Virus record (IMG/VR): IMGVR_UViG_3300037465_000103
Location: 1 to 44,471 of that record
Source of the DNA: a virus
Lineage: Duplodnaviria; Caudoviricetes
Strand: one strand, 5' to 3'
DNA: 44,471 bases
How positions within the stretch are numbered: position 1 is the stretch's first letter; every line of letters starts with the position of its first letter. Under the pieces are notes generated by a model. That model ran no database searches. It worked only from the letters and a program-made list of their open reading frames with translations, and was not told where the DNA came from. The position numbers and the translations under genes were made by a program. Below, piece after piece: positions 4,881-44,471 of this stretch.

Positions 4881-6848
4881 CTATCCGCCCGGCGTGAATG
4901 CGACGCTGAGCGCGTCGTCAACATCCTGCCCGAACGTTACTGCTTTGAATTGATAGGTCGTGCCGAGTTCGTTCGCGTTGATTTGCACGCGGCGCACTGC
5001 CGCATCCACCAAGACGAACCGCTCACTGATCTGATGACTGCCCGCTTGCCCCGACGTGGAGCGTAAGCCCCTGTCGAGGTAGGACAGTCTGTAGAGATTT
5101 GGCCTTACCTCCGGATCTGGCCGCGTCACGTCGCGGAACTGAATCGCCTCACCGCCGAGCACGCACAGATTGACCGTCTCGGTCGCGTCAAAGTCGTCCT
5201 GCGTGATGCTCGCAAGCGTCCCGTTCGTCAACTCCACATCCACCGTATTTGTCTGATCAACGCCCGAACCCGCCGCAAGCTGCGTCACGGCGCGTCCGAT
5301 CGTTGCGGGCGCCGTGGCCGACAGCAGGGCTTGATACTGCCCCTCGTCTCCCAACTGCCTGTAGAGAGTGAAGCCCTCCCATGTCTCGTTATTGCCCATC
5401 GGCGCTCCCGCCGCGTAAAAGCCCGTCGTGCCGGAGTCGGCGTCAACAAGCGCGGGAACGTGCGAGAGCCATAGGTCTGTATCGTCGGGCGCGTAAACAG
5501 TGTTCGCCGTGACCGGGCCACCCTGTCCAGGATCGCCCTCGCCGTCCTGGTCGTAAGCCTCTGCAATCTGGCGCGCGCCCTTGATCGTGATCACGCCCGG
5601 CGCCGGAAACTCCATCTCCGCAATATGAATGTCGAGCGTCGCGCCCGCTGGCGTCGTGATCGTTACGACATCGCCCGGAGAGAGCCACAGGTAATCGCTC
5701 GGCAGGGTGAACTGAACCGGCATCCGCTCTGTCCAGGCGGTGATGGCTTCGATCTTTGCGATGCGGTCGGCTGTGTCGGCGTCGAGGGCGAGTTGCAAAC
5801 TGATCGTCGCCACACTGTCCCCGCCGTAGACCTCACGCCCGAAGCCTTGCGTGTTCGGTTCGTAATTGCGCGCGATGTCGTGATACGTGACCTCGACGCG
5901 GCGCGCAATCTCCTGATCTTGACGGCGCGACATCTGAAGGCGAGGGGCCTGCCCCTGATCACGCCCTTCCTGATACGAACCGAGATCGTCATACGGAATG
6001 ACCGCGACGGCGGTATGAGGTCTTTGCAGCGCCTTCACCTTGCCGTCAACTTCCACGAACTCCAACTGAAACGCCGTGGCCAGTTGCTCAAGAGATGATC
6101 GTGGCTGCGTGACCGCCTGAAACCAGCATCCGTGAAGCGTGGCGTCAACCTCGCTCACATCAATCTCGTCTTCGGTCAACCCGCCGAAGATCATCTCCGC
6201 CCGGATAATCTCGCCGACATCGGTTGTCGGATGAACAACCCTGCACGTGAAGTTCGGGATGCGGTTCCCGTATCTGTCGAGCACAAAATCCCACAACTCG
6301 AAACCTGCGAAGCCTCGATGCGCCGTCGCGTTACCCGCGCCCCGCTCCGCCTCGACCTTTGCGCTCGGCTCCTGCGTCTCCGTGCCGAGGAAGATGCGCC
6401 CGCCGGAAGCTCCGGCGATGTTGATCGTGACTTCGTTGCCCGTCGCGGCGCCGGAATAGATCAACTCATCATCAGCGTAGATTTCCGTGATGCCGGAGAT
6501 TGGCCCCGTCGCCGCGCAGTCCGAAACCAAGACCATCAATGAACAGGAATAACTGTAGGAGATGACATCGGGGGTGCGGCGTTTGCCGCCCTGGCCGCGC
6601 TGGACGGTCTGCGTCTCCTTGATGTCGGTCGCCCAGACGACCTGACCTGCGACATTGCCCATCGTTCCGTAGATACGGGTGAATGGCTGGCCGTATTCGG
6701 AGAGCTGGACGCGGATGTCTTGTTGCTTGTTGATCTCCTGCGCCTTGGGCTTCGGCGCAAGTTTCGCGGCAATAATGGACAGGCCAACACTAGCCGCCGT
6801 CGAGATGGCAGTTACAATCAAAGCTCCGACTAAGGTCTCAATGCCCAT
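4881..6848 (-). CDS. GTA-like tail tip/hub (host-specificity) protein
   Basis: 655 aa with motifs YGQPFTRIYGT, AHRGFA, YGNRIPNFT and LSPGDV typical of GTA/siphophage tail-tip proteins. Follows NlpC/P60. Confidence 0.85.
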   Translation of the reverse strand: MGIETLVGALIVTAISTAASVGLSIIAAKLAPKPKAQEINKQQDIRVQLSEYGQPFTRIYGTMGNVAGQVVWATDIKETQTVQRGQGGKRRTPDVISYSYSCSLMVLVSDCAATGPISGITEIYADDELIYSGAATGNEVTINIAGASGGRIFLGTETQEPSAKVEAERGAGNATAHRGFAGFELWDFVLDRYGNRIPNFTCRVVHPTTDVGEIIRAEMIFGGLTEDEIDVSEVDATLHGCWFQAVTQPRSSLEQLATAFQLEFVEVDGKVKALQRPHTAVAVIPYDDLGSYQEGRDQGQAPRLQMSRRQDQEIARRVEVTYHDIARNYEPNTQGFGREVYGGDSVATISLQLALDADTADRIAKIEAITAWTERMPVQFTLPSDYLWLSPGDVVTITTPAGATLDIHIAEMEFPAPGVITIKGARQIAEAYDQDGEGDPGQGGPVTANTVYAPDDTDLWLSHVPALVDADSGTTGFYAAGAPMGNNETWEGFTLYRQLGDEGQYQALLSATAPATIGRAVTQLAAGSGVDQTNTVDVELTNGTLASITQDDFDATETVNLCVLGGEAIQFRDVTRPDPEVRPNLYRLSYLDRGLRSTSGQAGSHQISERFVLVDAAVRRVQINANELGTTYQFKAVTFGQDVDDALSVAFTPGG

Positions 6849-14630: not shown

Positions 14631-17282
14631 TTAACCTCCAAGATCAGCCTGTACGCTGACCACTGTTTGTTCCGTCGCCGTAAGCGACGCGTCTATGACC
14701 GCCACTTCGCTGAGTGTCGCATCCGTAACCGATGCCGCCTTCAGCGTCACAGTTACCGGAGCGCCTCCGCCAAGCAGCGCCTTCAAGAGAGAGCCAGCGA
14801 GAGCGAGAGCGCCCGCCAGCGCCTTGCCTACCGTCTTTACCACCGCGCCCGATGAGATGATCGCGCCTGTCAGAGTCTTGCCGGCCAATCGCGCCAATGA
14901 TCCCGACAAAGAGATAGTTCCGGCGAGCGCCAATAACACAGTCCTGAGCGCGCTTACCGCGCCGGAAGAAGCCACAGAACCATCCAGGCTCTTGAAGGCG
15001 TCCTTCATGACGGCAGCCGCCGACGCGATAGAGCCGGCAAGAAGCTTCTGCGGTTGTTTAAGAATCGCGCCCGCCATCGTGACGCTGCCCGCAAAGCTGC
15101 GCAGTACAGCTTTAAGCGTTGAGAGCGCGCCGGAAGACGCAATCGAGCCGGAGAGTAGATTCTGAGCCTGTTTAATCAGCGCGGCGGCGGACGTGATTGA
15201 GCCGGCCAAGACCTGTTGCGGCTGTTTGAGCAATGCGGCGGCGGAAGCGATGGAGGCGGTTAAAAGCTTCTGTGATTGATTGACCAGCGCGCCTGCGGAA
15301 GTGGCGACGCCCGCCAACTCTTTCCGCGTCTCTCTCAATAAAGCGGACGCGGATGAGACAGAACCAGCGAGTAACTTTTGCGACTGTTTAATCAACGTAG
15401 CCGATGAAGTGATTGCGCCATTCAACGCCTTCGCAGTCTCTCGGCTCAATGCGCCGGCGGAGGCTATGGCTCCGTCGAAACTCCGCAGAAAGGTCTTGAG
15501 AGATTCGAGCGTCGCGGCGGATGTGATCTGGCCGGCAATTGTTTTCTGCGCCTCTTTCAGCAACGCGGCGGCGGAAGAGATGGCGCCGGCCAAGACCTTC
15601 TCAGCTTGTCGTATCAATGCGCCCGCTGACGCAATGGAGCCGGAGAGGGACAGAAGAACAACTCTGACCGCTGTGAACACAGCGGAAGACGCGACTTGTC
15701 CGGCCAGGGTTTTCTGCGCTTCTTTCAGCAATGAAGCAGCGGAAGAGATCGAACCGGCAAGCGCCCTCTGTGTCTCTTTCAGTAGCGAGGCGGTGGGCGA
15801 GACTGCTCCCGCCAGCGCGCCCCGCGCCTCTTTCACTATGGTAGCCGTTGATGCGATCGCGGCGCCGAAGACTTTCTGCGGTTGTTTGATCAATGCGCCG
15901 GCGGATGTAACCGCGCTCGCCAGCAGTTGCCCCGATTGCTTGATCAGCGCGCCGGCGGAGGCTATGGCTCCCTCAAAACTACGCGCTACGGTTCTAACTG
16001 AAGAGAGAACGGCGGATGACGTAACTTGTCCGGTCAAGGCCGCCTGCGCTTCTTTCAGCAATGAAGCCGCAGATGTGATCGAGCCGGCAAATAACTGGCG
16101 AGCCTCCTTTGTCAGCGTGGCGGCGGGAGAGACGGAGCCGGCCAGCGCCTTCTGCGCCTGGTTGATCAATGCGGCGGCGGATGTGATTGAGCCGGCCAAT
16201 GTCTTCTGCGCCTGGTTGATCAACGTGGCCGTGAGGGAGATCGCGCCGGAGAGGCTCTGGAGAACCACTCTGGACGCTGAAAGCGTAGCGGAAGACGCAA
16301 TCGAGCCTGAGAGTAGATTCTGAGCCTGCTTGAGCAACCCGGCGGCGGATGTGATTGAGCCGGCTAAGACCTGTTGCGGCTGTTTGAGCAACGCGGCGGC
16401 AGCAGTAATCGCGCCCGTCAGGATATTCTGCGCTTGCCTGACCAGTTCAGCAGCGGAGGCGATAGAGCCGCTAAACGTCTTCTGCGGCTGATTGAGCGCC
16501 GCAGCAGATGGCGTAATTGAGGCTGCAAATGCCCTCTGCGTCTGATTGATTATGGTTCCGGGCGGCGCGATCTGGCCCGTCAGCGTCTGGTTGACCAGTT
16601 TGAGCAAGGTCGCCGAAGGCGCTACGGCGCCCGCCACCTCCTGCGCAAAGAAATTCCCTGCCGCGCCGAACAATTGCATTGACCAGACATCCGCCTGATT
16701 GCCTGTCCTCACCCAGATCGGAAGTTGCTGCCACTGGATGTCGTTGTCGAAGTGCGGCGCGATCTGCTCGAAATTCCCAGAGCCGGTCTTCTTGTGGAGG
16801 CCGATATCATTGCCCAGATGCCACAGCCCCGCAGTTCGGCTTCGACGCGCGCCTCTACCTGCTCTTAGGGGGGCGTTGCTTCCGAAGAGATGCCTGCCCA
16901 CTGCCGTGGCGCTGCCCGTGGTGGTCACGAATCCGATAAACTCATTCGCGCCGCCTTGATTGACTGGCGCGTAGCGCGGATGAGGAATAAAGGAGAACCG
17001 ATTGAATCGCTGCCCGCCGAGTCGCACTAGGTATTGGCCTACAACGCCGACGTTCCCTCCGGCCTTGATGTCTACGTTGGAGCGAGTATTGAGCGGTTCT
17101 TGAGAGAAGTCGGAACCGACGGTCACATCTCTCGCCAAGTCAGTGCGGGTGACGCTGGCTGTCGTATCCCCGAAGAATATACGCGCAGAGATCAGGATGA
17201 TCTGCCGATTATCGTTGTTCGCATTGCCCAGGGAGATTCCCGTATTATCCGTGAATAACCCCGCTCCCGGCGTGCCTAACAT
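14631..17282 (-). CDS. 883-aa repeat protein (about 30 imperfect 21-22 aa repeats), putative head/neck fibre
   Basis: About 210-aa N-terminal domain followed by tandem units like QK.LAGSITSAA.L.K. Coupled to neighbouring genes. Confidence 0.75.
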   Translation of the reverse strand: MLGTPGAGLFTDNTGISLGNANNDNRQIILISARIFFGDTTASVTRTDLARDVTVGSDFSQEPLNTRSNVDIKAGGNVGVVGQYLVRLGGQRFNRFSFIPHPRYAPVNQGGANEFIGFVTTTGSATAVGRHLFGSNAPLRAGRGARRSRTAGLWHLGNDIGLHKKTGSGNFEQIAPHFDNDIQWQQLPIWVRTGNQADVWSMQLFGAAGNFFAQEVAGAVAPSATLLKLVNQTLTGQIAPPGTIINQTQRAFAASITPSAAALNQPQKTFSGSIASAAELVRQAQNILTGAITAAAALLKQPQQVLAGSITSAAGLLKQAQNLLSGSIASSATLSASRVVLQSLSGAISLTATLINQAQKTLAGSITSAAALINQAQKALAGSVSPAATLTKEARQLFAGSITSAASLLKEAQAALTGQVTSSAVLSSVRTVARSFEGAIASAGALIKQSGQLLASAVTSAGALIKQPQKVFGAAIASTATIVKEARGALAGAVSPTASLLKETQRALAGSISSAASLLKEAQKTLAGQVASSAVFTAVRVVLLSLSGSIASAGALIRQAEKVLAGAISSAAALLKEAQKTIAGQITSAATLESLKTFLRSFDGAIASAGALSRETAKALNGAITSSATLIKQSQKLLAGSVSSASALLRETRKELAGVATSAGALVNQSQKLLTASIASAAALLKQPQQVLAGSITSAAALIKQAQNLLSGSIASSGALSTLKAVLRSFAGSVTMAGAILKQPQKLLAGSIASAAAVMKDAFKSLDGSVASSGAVSALRTVLLALAGTISLSGSLARLAGKTLTGAIISSGAVVKTVGKALAGALALAGSLLKALLGGGAPVTVTLKAASVTDATLSEVAVIDASLTATEQTVVSVQADLGG

Positions 17283-30231: not shown

Positions 30232-30906
30232 GCGGCGGAACCTGCCGACAACGCAAAAGGGAAGACCTATGAGCAAGTCGAAAACACCAATGACCGCGCA
30301 AGAGCGGGCAGCGGAGATGTTCGGCCCGGAGCGACTGGCCAATTGGATCAGGCCGGCGCTGGGGCTGGGGCTGGTAATCATCGGCAGTCTGTCGCTGCTA
30401 GCGGTGATGAGGCGGGGCTGAATGGGCAGACTGAGTACTCAGTCTCGCTCGCTGAGTGCGCTGTCGAATCGGGCGCTTGCCGCTCAGCGCCGCCAGTCAG
30501 TCAAACCTCAAATGACCACTCAGTCACACCGCAGACTGAGTACTCAGTCTCGACTCAGACTGAGTACTCAGTCTCCGGTGAGCCGCGCGAAACCGCCGGA
30601 GCACAACTTTATGACCTCGCGGAGTTTAGAGCCAGGCTGAGTACTCAGTCTGCCGCTGTCTATGATAAGAAAAAGTGGAAGCGCAGCCGGGAGCGTCCGG
30701 GCTTCCTGATCAAACGAATTCGCGGCTATAATGCCGTCGAAGATAAGTACGGAGTTTCTTATCTTTACGTACTCAGTCGGAAGCCAGACCGCATGTCAGG
30801 CGACTATTCAGTCTATCCGTTCGCAGGATTTTTCAACTGGCAGGCCCTGGAACTGAGCGGTTTGCTCGTTAAGGAGAGGAAGCAATATGCAAAACGCCAA
30901 CGCTGA
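30163..30906 (+). CDS. -1 frame extension: disordered linker with palindromic repeats and a basic/aromatic C-terminal domain
   Basis: The frame of ORF 30343..30906 is open back to the slippery site. Its only annotated start is a TTG with no clear RBS. Confidence 0.65.
   Translation, partial: PKRLTPQTQGAGGEEEIAYPPRLAAEPADNAKGKTYEQVENTNDRARAGSGDVRPGATGQLDQAGAGAGAGNHRQSVAASGDEAGLNGQTEYSVSLAECAVESGACRSAPPVSQTSNDHSVTPQTEYSVSTQTEYSVSGEPRETAGAQLYDLAEFRARLSTQSAAVYDKKKWKRSRERPGFLIKRIRGYNAVEDKYGVSYLYVLSRKPDRMSGDYSVYPFAGFFNWQALELSGLLVKERKQYAKRQR
30269..30421 (+). CDS. Nested 50-aa peptide with C-terminal TM helix
   Basis: MSKSKTPMTAQERAAEMFGPERLANWIRPALGLGLVIIGSLSLLAVMRRG, purine-rich AAAGGGAAG upstream. 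Overlaps the -1 frame. Confidence 0.4.
   Translation: MSKSKTPMTAQERAAEMFGPERLANWIRPALGLGLVIIGSLSLLAVMRRG
30428..30651. repeat. Cluster of 18-bp palindromes AGACTGAGTACTCAGTCT
   Basis: Perfect copies at 30428, 30533 and 30557, a one-mismatch copy at 30634, and half sites at 30518 and 30769. Confidence 0.92.
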
Positions 30907-32685: not shown

Positions 32686-33564
32686 TCAGTTCAAGCGGCC
32701 AGTTCCATCGCAGGTCTCGCATTTAATACCGTAACTGCGCTTGCCTCCGATGATCTTCATCACCGTCTTCGCGCCGCCGCATTCGGGGCAGTATTGCGGG
32801 GCGGGGGATTGAGCGCTGTTCCTGTCACGCTGACGCGCTGCGAGCCACGCTCCGAAATCCTCGGCGATGAATGCGATTTTGAATGATCGTTTGGATTCGG
32901 AGGTCACATACTCGCGGAGGAGTTCAACTGAGCCACCGATGCTGGCGATGGCGACAGCGGCGCGCTCAAGTTTCAGGGCGGAGCCGTTGACCGGAGCGAC
33001 GCCACAGACTTTACTTAGTTCGGCTTTGAGGATTTCATCGGGTAGAGGTTCGGAGAAATCATCAACCGGACTGGAAGGTAAAGGGGGCTTGTTTCCCCTT
33101 TTTTCTTCTACATGGTTTTCTTCCTTCCTTATAGGTTGTCCATTTTTTGAACAGCAGTGATGTCCATTTTTTGAACAGCAGTGATGTCCATTTTTTGAAC
33201 CACAGGGCGCGGCGTCGAAAGGTTCCCATTCGATCCTGACGGCTCGATTAAGCCCGTAACTTTTCGGCGACCACTGGTCGTCTCCCTCGTATTCGATAAT
33301 CAACGGCGCCGGTCGGTCGTCTTGCGTGAAGGATCGCAACTCCTTCAGACCTTCAATGACCGTCGTGCGGCTCTTGATCCCGGAGAGGTCGGCGATAGTC
33401 GCCAGACTGAGGCGGCATACCTCGCGTTGCCACCCTTTAGTTTGCCGGACGATGAAGCAAAGGATCGTCCACGATGTCGGCTTGATCTGTGGCATTACCA
33501 CATCCAGCAGCGCGTTGTGAATCTCCGTGTAATAGCCTTGATGCTTGAATGGGGCTACTTGCAT
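32686..33564 (-). CDS. Phage replication initiator (lambda O-like)
   Basis: YTEI.N.LLD and I.RQT.GW...SL..IA..SG wHTH N-terminus, internal iterons, upstream of dnaB. AAGGAGG RBS. Confidence 0.8.
   Translation of the reverse strand: MQVAPFKHQGYYTEIHNALLDVVMPQIKPTSWTILCFIVRQTKGWQREVCRLSLATIADLSGIKSRTTVIEGLKELRSFTQDDRPAPLIIEYEGDDQWSPKSYGLNRAVRIEWEPFDAAPCGSKNGHHCCSKNGHHCCSKNGQPIRKEENHVEEKRGNKPPLPSSPVDDFSEPLPDEILKAELSKVCGVAPVNGSALKLERAAVAIASIGGSVELLREYVTSESKRSFKIAFIAEDFGAWLAARQRDRNSAQSPAPQYCPECGGAKTVMKIIGGKRSYGIKCETCDGTGRLN
33137..33200. repeat. Iteron-like tandem repeats (probable replication origin)
   Basis: 24-bp unit TGTCCATTTTTTGAACAGCAGTGA twice plus a 16-bp third copy, next to an A/T-skewed tract inside the initiator gene. 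Confidence 0.8.
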
Positions 33565-37363: not shown

Positions 37364-37619
37364 GAAGTTCAAGATCGAAGACGAACACCGCGCGGGCGTC
37401 CGCACCTATCGCCTGCTCGCTGGTGACCGGATCATCGCGCGCGACGTGTGCGCGGAGTTCGTTGATTTGCTGGCAAGCGCGGGCGTGTTGAAGGACGCGC
37501 TCTACGCGATCCTATACACCGATCAAGACAATCTGATTCCAGACGATCTGCACGCGCAGGCCCGCGAGGCCCTCGACGCGGCGCGCGCGTTACGGCGGGA
37601 GGTCATCGGCTTCGTATGA
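37356..37619 (+). CDS. Hypothetical phage protein
   Basis: AGGAGG RBS before ATG 37356, coupled to neighbours. Confidence 0.6.
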   Translation: MAEKFKIEDEHRAGVRTYRLLAGDRIIARDVCAEFVDLLASAGVLKDALYAILYTDQDNLIPDDLHAQAREALDAARALRREVIGFV

Positions 37620-38814
37620 TCTACCTGAGCGGCAGACTACAGGCGGCGCAGATCGGCGCCAGACCGGACATCGGCATTATGCTGGGGTACCGCGCTGGCT
37701 CGCTCTCGCACGGCAAGCGCCATTTGGAAAAATGCCTGTCGCCGGCTGCAATTCAACAGATGGCACTCAATTGGCCTTTGCCCCGGATAAGCGGCTTGAG
37801 CCACGCGGCCATTCGGGGCGATCTGAAGCGGCATCTGGGCGTTGATCGGGAGGAGATCAAAGGCGAGCGGTTCACGCTCGTTCGCAATGATTGCGTGGGC
37901 GAGGTCAAGCGACTGGCCGATAACAGCGCTGGACTGATTCTAACCTCGATTCCGTTCGGCAATCATTACGAGTATTCGACGCAGCATGAAGACTTCGGCC
38001 ACAATCGCACCGACGGAGACTTCTTCAGGCAGATGGACTTCCTGATTCCTGAACTCTATCGAACTTTGAAGCCTGGCCGCGTCGCGGCGATTCACGTCAA
38101 GGACCGCATTCTCTACGGGCATCAAACCGCATCCGGCTTCCTTGAGGTCGAGGAATTTAGCGACGATACGGTGAAAGCATTCAAGAGGCACGGTTTTCTT
38201 TACGCAGGCCGTCGAACAATCGTCACTGACGTTGTGCGCGAAAACAATTCCACCTACAGGCTCGGCTGGTCAGAGATGGCGAAGGACGCCTCAAAAATGG
38301 GCAGTGGTTTGCCCGAATACATCCTGCTCTTCCGCAAGCCGCCGACGAGTCGCGCCCAACAATACGCCGATGAGCCTGTCACGAAGAGCAAAGAAGATTA
38401 CACACGCGCACGCTGGCAAATAGACGCGCACGATTTTTGGCGGAGCGACGGGAATCGGCTTCTGACGCCAGCGGAATACGCGCAGCTGGAACCAGCGCAG
38501 GCCGTCGCGGTCTGGGCGGCGGAGCAGTTAAACGAGCCTTACAGTTATGAGCGCCACGTCGCCATCTGCGAGGCAATGGAAGCCGCTTGATTGTAGAGCC
38601 GTTCGCGGGACTCGGCACGGTGATCTATCGCGCCATCGCGCTGGGACGCATCGGTTATGGCGTGGAGTTGGCGCAGGATTATTTCGATGCGGCAAGGCGA
38701 TACTGTCAGCAAATTGAGAGGGAAGTGACGGCGCCGACGTTGTTTGATTTATTGTCGGCGATTGAGCAGCATCAAACGATGCCGAATGAAAACGCGATTG
38801 AGGTTACGGCGTGA
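37616..38814 (+). pseudogene. Split / internally deleted N4-N6 DNA methyltransferase
   Basis: Catalytic-type TSIPF and RTLKPGR motifs in 37616..38590. SAM motif EPFAGLGT in the separate ORF 38587..38814. The N-terminus looks unrelated. Confidence 0.7.
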
Positions 38815-42165: not shown

Positions 42166-43128
42166 ATGTCTGAAGCTCTGATTACAACTCAATCCACCAT
42201 CGTGTTGGCGCGCAACTTCGTCGCCGAGTGGGAAGCCTATCTTGACCTGCTTGCCAATACCGAAGAGATCAGCGCGGACACCGCCGCCGTCTACAAGCGC
42301 GGCGTTGCGCGCTTCCGCGAGTGGCTGGAACAGAGAGCGCCCGGCGCGAACGGGATGCAAGAGCAGGTCGTCAGGGAGTGGGTTGCGGCGATGCGGGAGA
42401 AGGGATGGACGGTCTCCACGCGCCAGGTAATGCTGGCCTCGCTCCGGTCATTCTGCGGTTGGCTGAAAGCGCAGGGTCTCGCCTCGACTGACCCGACGGC
42501 GGGCGTCAAGGCAGGGAAGCAGAGCAGGGCGAATCGCCACAAACGCGACAGCCTGACCGATGAGCAGGCGGGGAAGTTGCTGAGATTGGCCAGTCTCACC
42601 GCGCGCGACCGCGCCCTGGTCTGGCTGATGCTTCACACCGCTGCGCGAGGAATCGAGCTTTGCCGCGCCCGGATCGAAGACCTCCGCGAGGAAGAAGGCG
42701 ATCTTGTCTTATACGTCCAGGGCAAGGGCCGAACCGAGAGCGATAAGGAACCGCTCTACATCGCTTCGCCGGACGCGCAACGAGCCATCCGCGATTACCT
42801 GGCTGAACTCGCGGAGCGCGGCCACCGCTCCGGCGCGCTGTTTGTGACTGAGCGCGAATTCGGCGGAAAGCCGCGCGGCATCTCGCGGCGGACGCTGCGC
42901 CAGATCGGGAAGGGCGCTTTGCGCGCGGCGGGGATTGATGAGGCAACGGTTACAACTCACAGCCTCCGGCATAAGGCCATCACGAAGGCGCTTGAGAACG
43001 GCGCCGAACTGCGCGACGTGCAGACGATGGCGAGGCACGCCGACATCAACACGACGCTGATCTATGTTCACGAAAGTGCGCGGCGGGAGCGCGCGGCGGA
43101 AAGGATGATCAGCTATGACCGAGATTAA
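42166..43128 (+). CDS. Tyrosine recombinase / integrase (XerC/D-like)
   Basis: SAM-like N-terminal domain. Catalytic R (TAARGIE), K (QGKG), HSLRH, RH and Y (TTLIY) all present. Confidence 0.92.
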   Translation: MSEALITTQSTIVLARNFVAEWEAYLDLLANTEEISADTAAVYKRGVARFREWLEQRAPGANGMQEQVVREWVAAMREKGWTVSTRQVMLASLRSFCGWLKAQGLASTDPTAGVKAGKQSRANRHKRDSLTDEQAGKLLRLASLTARDRALVWLMLHTAARGIELCRARIEDLREEEGDLVLYVQGKGRTESDKEPLYIASPDAQRAIRDYLAELAERGHRSGALFVTEREFGGKPRGISRRTLRQIGKGALRAAGIDEATVTTHSLRHKAITKALENGAELRDVQTMARHADINTTLIYVHESARRERAAERMISYDRD

Positions 43129-43164: not shown

Positions 43165-43296
43165 ATGGCACGCAAACTAAACAACCCTGAGATGCCGATG
43201 CTTGCCTACAGATACGATGTTCGCATCATTGGCGAGATACCTAAGACGGTGGAGGGAGGGATGGTGAGATGCTGCGCGTCCATAAAATCAAGTTGA
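43165..43296 (+). CDS. Short ORF / possible gene remnant upstream of tnpB
   Basis: 43 aa MARKLNNPEMPMLAYRYDVRIIGEIPKTV..., overlapping the tnpB start. Confidence 0.3.
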   Translation: MARKLNNPEMPMLAYRYDVRIIGEIPKTVEGGMVRCCASIKSS

Positions 43297-44459
43297 ATCC
43301 AACTGAGGCGCAAGCGTCCTATTTCGCGCAATGCGCTGGCGTCGCGCGCTACACCTGGAATTGGGCGCTGGCGCGATGGAAGGCGATTAAAGCGACCGGC
43401 GCAGAGGCAAGCTTTAACGCGATCAAGAGCGAGTTTCGCGCAGACGTAGACGGCCAGCATCCTTTCTTCAAGGATGTGGCGTCGTGCGTGATTGATGAGG
43501 CCATCGGCGATCTGTCACGCGCCATCTCAACCTATCACAAGTCGAAGCAGACCTATTTGGAATCCGGCAATGCGACAGCCGTCGCGCGCCTGAAGTTCCC
43601 AAAATGGCGCAAGCGCCGCGAAGGCCAGGGCGGGTTCGCTTACACAAACACGCGGTTTAAGGTTGACGGTCATTCACTCAAACTGAGCCGGGGCGGCGTG
43701 GTGAATATGGCCGAAGAGTTGCGGTTCACGGGTAAACTGATGTCGTGCCGGATCGTGCAAGAGGCGGGCGAGTGGTTCGCAGCAATCAGCGTTGAGGCCG
43801 AAGCGCCCGCGCCCTCCACGGGCAAGGGCGTAATTGGCGTGCATTTCGGATTGCGGCATTTTGCGACGATGAGCGATGGCCAACAGATCGAATCGCCACG
43901 CGCTTACATCGCTGCGCAAGACAGGCTCGCCAGAGCGCAGCGCCACCTAAGCCGGAAGCAGAAGGGGAGCGCTCGATACAGGAAGCAGCGCGCAAAGGTC
44001 GCGCGCATCCATCAGCATATCGCCAACCAACGCGAACACTTTCAACACGGTCTAACGACGGCGCTTGTGCGAAAGAACGCAGTGATCGTGTATGACAAGT
44101 GGGATATTCAAGGGTTGATTGATCTACCAGACCAACGATGGGCGAAAGGGTTTTACGACGCGGCGATTGGAGAGACTGTGAGGCAATTGGAGTACAAGGG
44201 CAAAATGTACTCAGTCACGGTTCACGGCGCAAAGATCAAAGCATCGAAGACCTGCCACAAATGCGGCGCGGTCAATGAAGGACTGACGCTTGTTGAAAAA
44301 ACCTGGAACTGTCCGAATTGCGGCGCGATGCACGACCGAGAGCGTAACGCCGCAATGAACAATTACCTGATAGGGGTTGCCCTGTCCGCCGGTACTAATC
44401 AGGTCGGCGTAACGCCTGTGGAGCCTGGGGCCTCTGATTCTGATTCCGATCAGGATTAA
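43269..44459 (+). CDS. tnpB: TnpB-family RNA-guided protein with substituted RuvC catalytic residues (TldR-like)
   Basis: K..LNPT..Q...F....G..RY.WN N-terminus, FPKWRK, LSRKQKGS and Zn finger SKTCHKCG..CPNCG. RuvC motifs read GVHFG, YDKW and DRERNAA. Confidence 0.9.
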   Translation: MLRVHKIKLNPTEAQASYFAQCAGVARYTWNWALARWKAIKATGAEASFNAIKSEFRADVDGQHPFFKDVASCVIDEAIGDLSRAISTYHKSKQTYLESGNATAVARLKFPKWRKRREGQGGFAYTNTRFKVDGHSLKLSRGGVVNMAEELRFTGKLMSCRIVQEAGEWFAAISVEAEAPAPSTGKGVIGVHFGLRHFATMSDGQQIESPRAYIAAQDRLARAQRHLSRKQKGSARYRKQRAKVARIHQHIANQREHFQHGLTTALVRKNAVIVYDKWDIQGLIDLPDQRWAKGFYDAAIGETVRQLEYKGKMYSVTVHGAKIKASKTCHKCGAVNEGLTLVEKTWNCPNCGAMHDRERNAAMNNYLIGVALSAGTNQVGVTPVEPGASDSDSDQD

Positions 44460-44471
44460 GTTGCGGGCGCT
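44380..44471 (+). ncRNA. Probable 5' part of the omegaRNA scaffold overlapping the tnpB 3' end
   Basis: AACGCCTGTGGAG (TPVE) pattern commonly seen at tnpB 3' ends. The guide is probably beyond the window. Confidence 0.45.

Follow-up and report, generated by a model that had tools for sequence, protein, structure and literature searches.

A tailed-phage TnpB with a clade-conserved H/D/E RuvC triad is probably a very small type V silencer without nuclease activity

The 44,471-nt stretch of viral DNA analyzed here (the window) ends with a tnpB gene that, judged from its sequence, likely belongs to a tiny nuclease-dead type V silencer. In the reading to which we give somewhat better than even chances, this TnpB, its own scaffold RNA and the spacers of a predicted downstream array would together form a programmable, non-cutting DNA binder that blocks transcription or replication of rival mobile elements. 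We directly observed the altered RuvC triad of the protein, the conservation of this triad over eight proteins, the scaffold, and, at the related locus L002, a CRISPR array which fits the scaffold at both expected positions. A preliminary description of the same DNA had proposed a non-cutting RNA-guided binder, and this still holds as a prediction. The system is real, under selection, and more interesting than a lone TldR.

The tnpB gene (positions 43269-44459, plus strand) is an uninterrupted open reading frame of IS607-type descent, encoding 396 aa. In Pfam, the domains HTH_OrfB_IS605, OrfB_IS605, and Cas12f1-like_TNB were all above their cut-offs, and the NCBIfam model guided_TnpB scored 216.6 bits (cut-off 100). 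As had been described, the frame is open and the zinc finger intact, with both CxxC pairs (C329/C332 and C348/C351; 44253-44321, plus strand) kept. The AlphaFold model of the protein reached a pLDDT of 85, with low confidence at residues 287-295, and its top fold match was ISDra2 TnpB (8H1J, TM 0.76). Alignment to ISDra2 TnpB (PDB 8BF8, E 2e-50) placed H192, D276, and E358 on D191, E278, and D361, which we take to be the catalytic residues of that enzyme, confirming the three triad substitutions noticed earlier. A D-E-D triad rule for TnpB is given in the published TldR work (10.1101/2023.11.30.569447). The substituted codons, all on the plus strand, change Asp to His in RuvC-I (H192, 43842-43844), Glu to Asp in RuvC-II (D276, 44094-44096), and Asp to Glu in RuvC-III (E358, 44340-44342). 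From this H/D/E triad we predict that the window TnpB does not cleave DNA. Contig X1, a contig from a sequencing run and perhaps the one from which the window DNA derives, has the identical three triad codons; a single base differs between the two, G->A at window position 44344, corresponding to R359H directly adjoining E358.

The phage origin of the DNA, also proposed in the preliminary description, is borne out by genes for a terminase, a portal, a major head protein, tail proteins, DnaB, and an O-like initiator. The record represents a linear virus fragment, estimated to be 61% complete, of a tailed phage with an integrase. The Acidobacteriota host suggested in that description was not confirmed; homologs of the integrase bore no informative names. 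No terminal repeat or circular overlap of at least 8 nt was found at the window ends, a comparison of run X2 with the window gave short partial matches only, and the contig stops 12 nt after the tnpB stop codon. Several other elements were seen along the window. A minus-strand open reading frame of 883 aa in the head-tail region (14631-17282) contains many 54-nt (18-aa) repeats, and a palindromic motif occurs in several direct and inverted copies inside a putative open reading frame at 30417-30654, where the copies are possible operator or iteron sites. Three tandem 24-nt repeats within the gene for the O-like replication initiator (33137-33208) are likely origin iterons. At 37616-38814 lies a DNA methylase-like frame with a weak Pfam N6_N4_Mtase match; it is overlapped by a 75-aa frame with a methyltransferase-like motif, and the two are possibly one split or frameshifted gene.

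No tnpA was found upstream of the window tnpB. In agreement with the preliminary description, the nearest long gene upstream encodes a phage tyrosine integrase (42166-43128, plus strand), recognized by Pfam and NCBIfam. A putative 43-codon open reading frame (43165-43296, plus strand) lies between the two genes and overlaps the tnpB start; its middle part (LAYRYDVRII) resembles the N-terminal strand of TnpB and may be a remnant. Since the integrase gene is adjacent to and co-oriented with tnpB, and inactive TnpBs beside tyrosine recombinases are described as having arisen at least three times (PMC10691335), the TnpB might serve as a targeting partner of the integrase in RNA-guided integration. 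We regard this as very improbable, given that a temperate phage is expected to have an integrase anyway and that small open reading frames, but no integrase, lie upstream of tnpB in L002. The link to the integrase drawn in the preliminary description was thus not upheld at this relative, and the integrase is probably a neighbor outside the tnpB module.

The H/D/E triad is shared by a group of related proteins. Among the best 120 protein matches, the query included, seven carry H/D/E, 112 D/E/D, and one D/G/D, and P0123 joined the clade through a profile search. Over 270 proteins, 242 have the D/E/D triad and 10 have H/D/E, the latter comprising eight distinct clusters plus two near-copies; a further profile search gave no ninth member among 14 matches at E 1e-90. 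In a quick tree of 56 rows, picked from the 270 proteins by identity and redundancy, the eight H/D/E proteins form a single branch with a support of 100, nested among IS607-type TnpBs with the D/E/D triad. Identity within the clade is 50-70%, with pairwise values as low as 46%. His, Asp, and Glu occupy the three triad positions in all eight clade members, whereas all 13 sister proteins have Asp, Glu, and Asp. In total, 107 of 396 positions are invariant in the clade, and 31 of these are unlike nearly all of the 13 sisters. These 31 positions take in the triad, the likewise invariant W278, and a clade-specific lid segment after RuvC-II (residues 284-289; 44118-44135, plus strand), which includes a short insertion and in which I284, D285, L286, P287, and Q289 are identical in 8/8 members.

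A single clade locus was found in metagenome contigs, L002, which encodes P0005 (60% identical to the window TnpB) and is the sole clade member found with DNA. We found no further clade loci in viral contigs, none among 79 loci from GTDB genomes (best 43%), none in 250 genomes from the class to which G003 belongs, and none in phage or plasmid records (best 33-35%). The absence of a transposase and the clade-wide conservation of the triad changes go together, with genomic context coming from two of the eight members. Concerning the origin of the lineage, L003 (43%) is the nearest locus with DNA that encodes a D/E/D relative; read by eye, its sequence shows the remnant of a tnpA-like gene as well as an end of the IS607 type, and IS607 transposases adjoin the best plasmid matches of the window TnpB.

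These data bear directly on the possibility that the gene is a stranded IS607 copy in neutral decay. The missing transposase and the many broken TnpBs among the fetched loci fit this possibility, but the same three residues recur in eight proteins down to 46% pairwise identity, and 107 of 396 positions are invariant. A comparison of the window gene with that of L002 over 364 codons yielded a dN of 0.35 and a dS of 3.6, i.e., a ratio of about 0.1, which is rough because dS is saturated. The identical triad in eight proteins together with this ratio argues against decay, whose probability we consider close to negligible, and supports the earlier proposal of domestication rather than decay.

Conservation of three residues that are all able to bind metal also raises the question of whether the site is rearranged but active. 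The H/D/E site, perhaps together with D285, which is invariant in 8/8 members, might still cut DNA or process RNA, and conserved rearrangements of this kind are often read as active in the published survey (PMC10691335). D285 is not placeable in the active site because the model is unreliable at 287-295. In its residues, the site resembles the DNA-binding pocket of Cas12m. Cas12m2, with an H-D-D site, is described as binding one Mg ion, not cutting, and using the site to help hold the non-target strand (PMC10442227). The combination of a RuvC-I His and a RuvC-II Asp in this enzyme is reported to lose the second Mg (PMC10442227), and H-D-D and N-D-D variants of Cas12m reportedly do not cut double-stranded DNA (PMC11013384). 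We therefore judge an active nuclease decidedly improbable and retain the prediction of a non-cutting protein.

The guide RNA scaffold could be located in part. We built a covariance model, R1, on 23 omegaRNA regions from array-free loci; it matched the window at 44382-44471 (plus strand) with model positions 1-86 of 144 and an E value of 0.019 in 1472 bases. The match appeared only in the 1.5-kb search, and in a search over 92 kb the window was not reported at E up to 1. The Rfam search gave nothing relevant. The matched segment represents the 5' part of an IS607-type omegaRNA scaffold, overlaps the end of tnpB, and aligns with the L002 scaffold. Because the contig ends inside the scaffold, the guide is missing from the window. 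The 5' hairpin of the scaffold (44387-44409, plus strand) bears the loop 5-mer ATCAG (44398-44402) at the pseudoknot position. In the 23 array-free loci, the loop of this hairpin pairs with the bases before the final RG, with 100% of cells paired and with two-sided changes, a result that is partly circular because the ends were chosen by pseudoknot score. By the same rule, the loop ATCAG predicts the guide-proximal end CTGAT-RG for the window RNA. The first pseudoknot pair is G-C in 23/23 array-free loci and A-T in L002, and the window loop also has A at this position. Since the D/E/D sister P0008 has the GTNQ scaffold loop of the dead clade, this loop is not tied to inactivation. P0008, located on a 34.6-kb contig, is the closest D/E/D sister (48%) and has a terminal scaffold-encoded motif, AGTNQVG, in common with the dead clade.

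In L002, the scaffold lies 3' of the tnpB stop codon (R1, E 1e-4), and an array begins 161 nt past the stop, with four 29-nt repeats at 5078, 5139, 5201, and 5262, the last one cut by the contig end. The repeat, which we take to be type I-E-like by its length and hairpin, is separated by spacers of 32, 33, and 32 nt. A repeat of 29 nt and spacers of I-E-like length (31-33 nt) agree with those described for the Thermus phage system discussed below (10.64898/2026.04.20.719267). A scan for omegaRNA 3' ends, applied alike to every locus, put the end of the L002 omegaRNA at 5106, where repeat 1 has its final base. There, the pseudoknot forms 5 of 5 pairs between the loop ATCAC and GTGAT-GG, and the 7-bp terminal stem is formed with the arm following GAAGCAGG, a layout as in L003. 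In a test with fixed positions, the last 14 nt of the L002 repeat supply both the terminal stem and the pseudoknot of the omegaRNA; the score of 14.5 was matched by 2 of 2000 shuffles and by none of 1480 window tiles, the geometry having first been spotted by eye on L002 before testing. The 14-mer predicted by the scaffold occurs within 3.38 Mb only in the three complete L002 repeats. Two position-free anti-repeat tests were not significant, with 85/1000 shuffles and 59/476 tiles reaching the L002 value in one and 491/2000 shuffles and 197/552 tiles in the other. Our reading of the sequence is that the L002 repeat replaces the omegaRNA 3' end, as in a TranC-type split guide; with the repeat in this place, the spacers would therefore be the guides. 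Exact 20-mers from two of the three L002 spacers had 0 matches in viral contigs, and when phages and plasmids were searched with the entire array, nothing better than matches at E 2-8 and no spacer target emerged.

The I-E length and hairpin of the L002 repeat would also fit a decoy or anti-CRISPR, in which the inactive TnpB, together with its tracr-like RNA, sequesters crRNAs of a host type I-E system or is aimed at host cas or defense promoters; such a mode of action is proposed for a phage-encoded Cas9 whose tracrRNA is directed at the repeats of the host (PMC10910872). However, L002 has its own array, and foreign I-E-like repeats fit the scaffold less well (10.5 and 7.5, n = 2, versus 14.5 for the L002 repeat), so that we consider a decoy improbable.

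At the window locus itself no array was seen, and no CRISPR array or repeat was found elsewhere within the window; three hints bear on the DNA just past its end. Contig X1 extends 94 nt past the window end and then stops, and 94 nt is also the distance in L002 from the point matching the window end to the last base of repeat 1; X1 is not independent evidence because it is perhaps the source of the window DNA. Assemblies tend to break at CRISPR arrays. A second hint is the A in the window's pseudoknot loop, which sets it apart from the array-free loci and is shared with L002, although the D/E/D protein P0008 has this loop too. Using a detector that requires three exact 18-mers, we tallied arrays over 113 open reading frames with at least 400 nt downstream, with L002 admitted at 366 nt and near-duplicates kept in. 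Arrays follow 2/2 His-type frames, 1/80 D/E/D frames, and 0/31 others, which are mostly fragments. We infer an array just past the contig end of the window; the case consists of one relative in a sister sub-branch and one length coincidence.

The same evidence weighs on the main competing reading of a single-guide TldR, i.e., one unsplit omegaRNA with a fixed guide, used to repress a promoter of the host or of a phage, with arrays confined to the L002 sub-branch. In an IQ-TREE quick tree, the sub-branch of the window (P0001-P0003) is sister to, not within, the one containing L002, which leaves room for such a difference. The window has a scaffold, TldRs on prophages exist, and at least two triad changes agree with the TldR screen as described (10.1101/2023.11.30.569447). 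Against a single guide speak the arrays at both His-type loci with downstream DNA, the 94-nt match between the X1 overhang and L002, and the whole fold and zinc finger of the protein, compared with the progressive decay described for TldRs in the same source. A single-guide TldR hence appears unlikely to us. Of the earlier label "TldR-like", the part that stands is the clade-conserved change of at least two triad residues without a transposase, whereas the single fixed guide does not fit L002, where the array repeat completes the scaffold.

For the CRISPR-programmed silencer that we favor, the following course of events can be proposed. Pairing between the tracr-like scaffold RNA and the 3'-terminal 14 nt of every repeat would make the start of the spacer the guide. 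Scaffold and crRNA would load the dead TnpB, and the complex would bind matching DNA and block transcription or replication. By analogy to the H-D-D site of Cas12m2, H192 and E358 may bind a single metal ion and keep hold of the non-target strand. The array may be fed by a type I-E Cas1-Cas2 of the host, as has been proposed for Cas12r, and the targets would be competing phages or integrative elements.

We compared this arrangement with the known systems. IS607-family TnpBs share the fold and the omegaRNA scaffold with the window protein, and the nearest D/E/D proteins are 40-48% identical to it. Unlike in this family, the triad is replaced and tnpA is missing in the clade, and the right end is replaced by a repeat in L002; neither the D/E/D triad nor the tnpA of an active IS607 TnpB is present at the window locus. 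TldRs linked to fliC, oppF, or csrA are likewise derived from TnpB, have at least two triad changes and an omegaRNA-type scaffold, and are described on prophages in one clade. They differ in having one adjacent fixed guide, and a link to a CRISPR array was not found in the passages of the TldR literature searched, whereas in the H/D/E clade the zinc finger of the window protein is whole and the relative L002 has an array.

Cas12m (subtype V-M) shares the RuvC-I His and RuvC-II Asp of Cas12m2, is described as linked to CRISPR and located on plasmids and prophages, and silences by binding. The two triads, H-D-E in the window protein and H-D-D in Cas12m2, are both non-canonical and of the His type. 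However, Cas12m is described as having about 600 aa, a REC2 insertion, and crRNA only, with no tracrRNA (PMC11013384, PMC10442227). The window protein has 396 aa, TnpB as its best fold match, and a retained omegaRNA-type scaffold, and its size and RNA place it outside Cas12m; Cas12m fold matches to its model have 10-13% identity. The likeness to Cas12m is convergent. The window protein is TnpB-sized and without the REC2 insertion, which has been called crucial for Cas12m (PMC10442227).

Cas12r of the Thermus phage Lalka resembles the clade in that a TnpB-like effector gene of a phage precedes I-E-like repeats of 29 nt with spacers of 31-33 nt and, as described, no adaptation genes are present (10.64898/2026.04.20.719267). 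The same source proposes acquisition by the host I-E system and conflict with other mobile elements, but characterizes Cas12r as an active nuclease with no tracrRNA and an array 15 nt past the gene (10.64898/2026.04.20.719267). TranCs are alike in architecture, being described as TnpB-sized effectors of IS607/IS605 descent with the omegaRNA split into a tracr-like RNA and a crRNA and with no cas1/cas2; one of them, CauTranC9, is phage-borne (PMC13565253, 10.64898/2026.03.27.714800). The TranCs characterized in these accounts are nucleases, and the clades listed have repeats of 32-38 nt, in contrast to the 29-nt repeat of the H/D/E clade (L002). The clade may be one of the uncharacterized TranC clades. 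By analogy, the system likely works like Cas12m and is built like TranC. In the passages covered by our literature search, we found no TnpB-sized H/D/E effector with an I-E-like array. TnpB is reported to have joined CRISPR about 50 times and to have lost cutting many times. Altered sites are described for V-U24, V-U43, and V-U44 (PMC10691335). Since CRISPR joining, loss of cutting, altered V-U sites, and dead TnpBs beside recombinases have all been reported already, published tables may include the clade without a name of its own.

A His at RuvC-I is not confined to this clade. Other TnpBs found by the profile search likewise have a RuvC-I His, together with an aromatic residue at the second position past RuvC-II and, in many cases, a RuvC-III Glu. 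Within this set, a RuvC-I His arose at least three times: its label requires 5 changes in a FastTree of 94 rows and 6 in an IQ-TREE quick tree (49 rows), where at least 3 are forced, in trees that contain several long rows and derive from a profile that favors His-type matches. P0127, P0131, P0169, P0184, P0225, P0237, P0244, P0265, and P0266 have His, Asn, or Glu at RuvC-I; they fall on separate branches, and an aromatic residue follows RuvC-II in most of them. The loci encoding P0131, P0225, and P0266 were not found. In the literature, other Cas12m clades are described as carrying HEK or HQK (PMC10442227).

Two viral loci combine such proteins or their relatives with arrays. L115 (9971-11811) encodes an H/E/E TnpB of 428 aa (24% identity to the query) with six 29-nt I-E-like repeats directly after the gene and an omegaRNA-type scaffold downstream of the array. 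Its anti-repeat test was not significant (73/1000), and a search for targets of its array gave 0 in phages and nothing convincing in 3 records. By eye, a tRNA-like sequence is visible just upstream of the L115 gene. L109 (10001-11512) encodes a D/E/D TnpB followed by a scaffold and then four I-E-like repeats; it groups with the H/Q/E proteins P0244 and P0290 and is a candidate active precursor. These loci lead us to a tentative proposal, which we hold at a little under even weight, of a repeated phage route. An IS607 TnpB would become a CRISPR-programmed silencer of 380-430 aa by using an I-E-like repeat as its omegaRNA 3' end, after which the RuvC pocket would change to a His-x-Glu form that grips DNA. 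Phages would have taken this route three times independently, in the H/D/E clade, in L115, and in the H/Q/E proteins that are sisters of L109, and the products, fed by host Cas1-Cas2, would be the smallest natural nuclease-dead type V effectors.

If true, the finding would join two paths of TnpB domestication that have been described apart, namely CRISPR capture, represented by TranC and Cas12, and loss of cutting, represented by TldR and Cas12m. A natural dead effector of 396 aa with array-programmed guides would also be a candidate for a compact scaffold in CRISPRi and base editing. The repeated appearance of His at RuvC-I makes it testable whether selection maintains the dead pocket for binding DNA, and the small size of the protein suggests that silencing is able to arise in an effector no larger than TnpB, ahead of the domain gains considered necessary in Cas12m.
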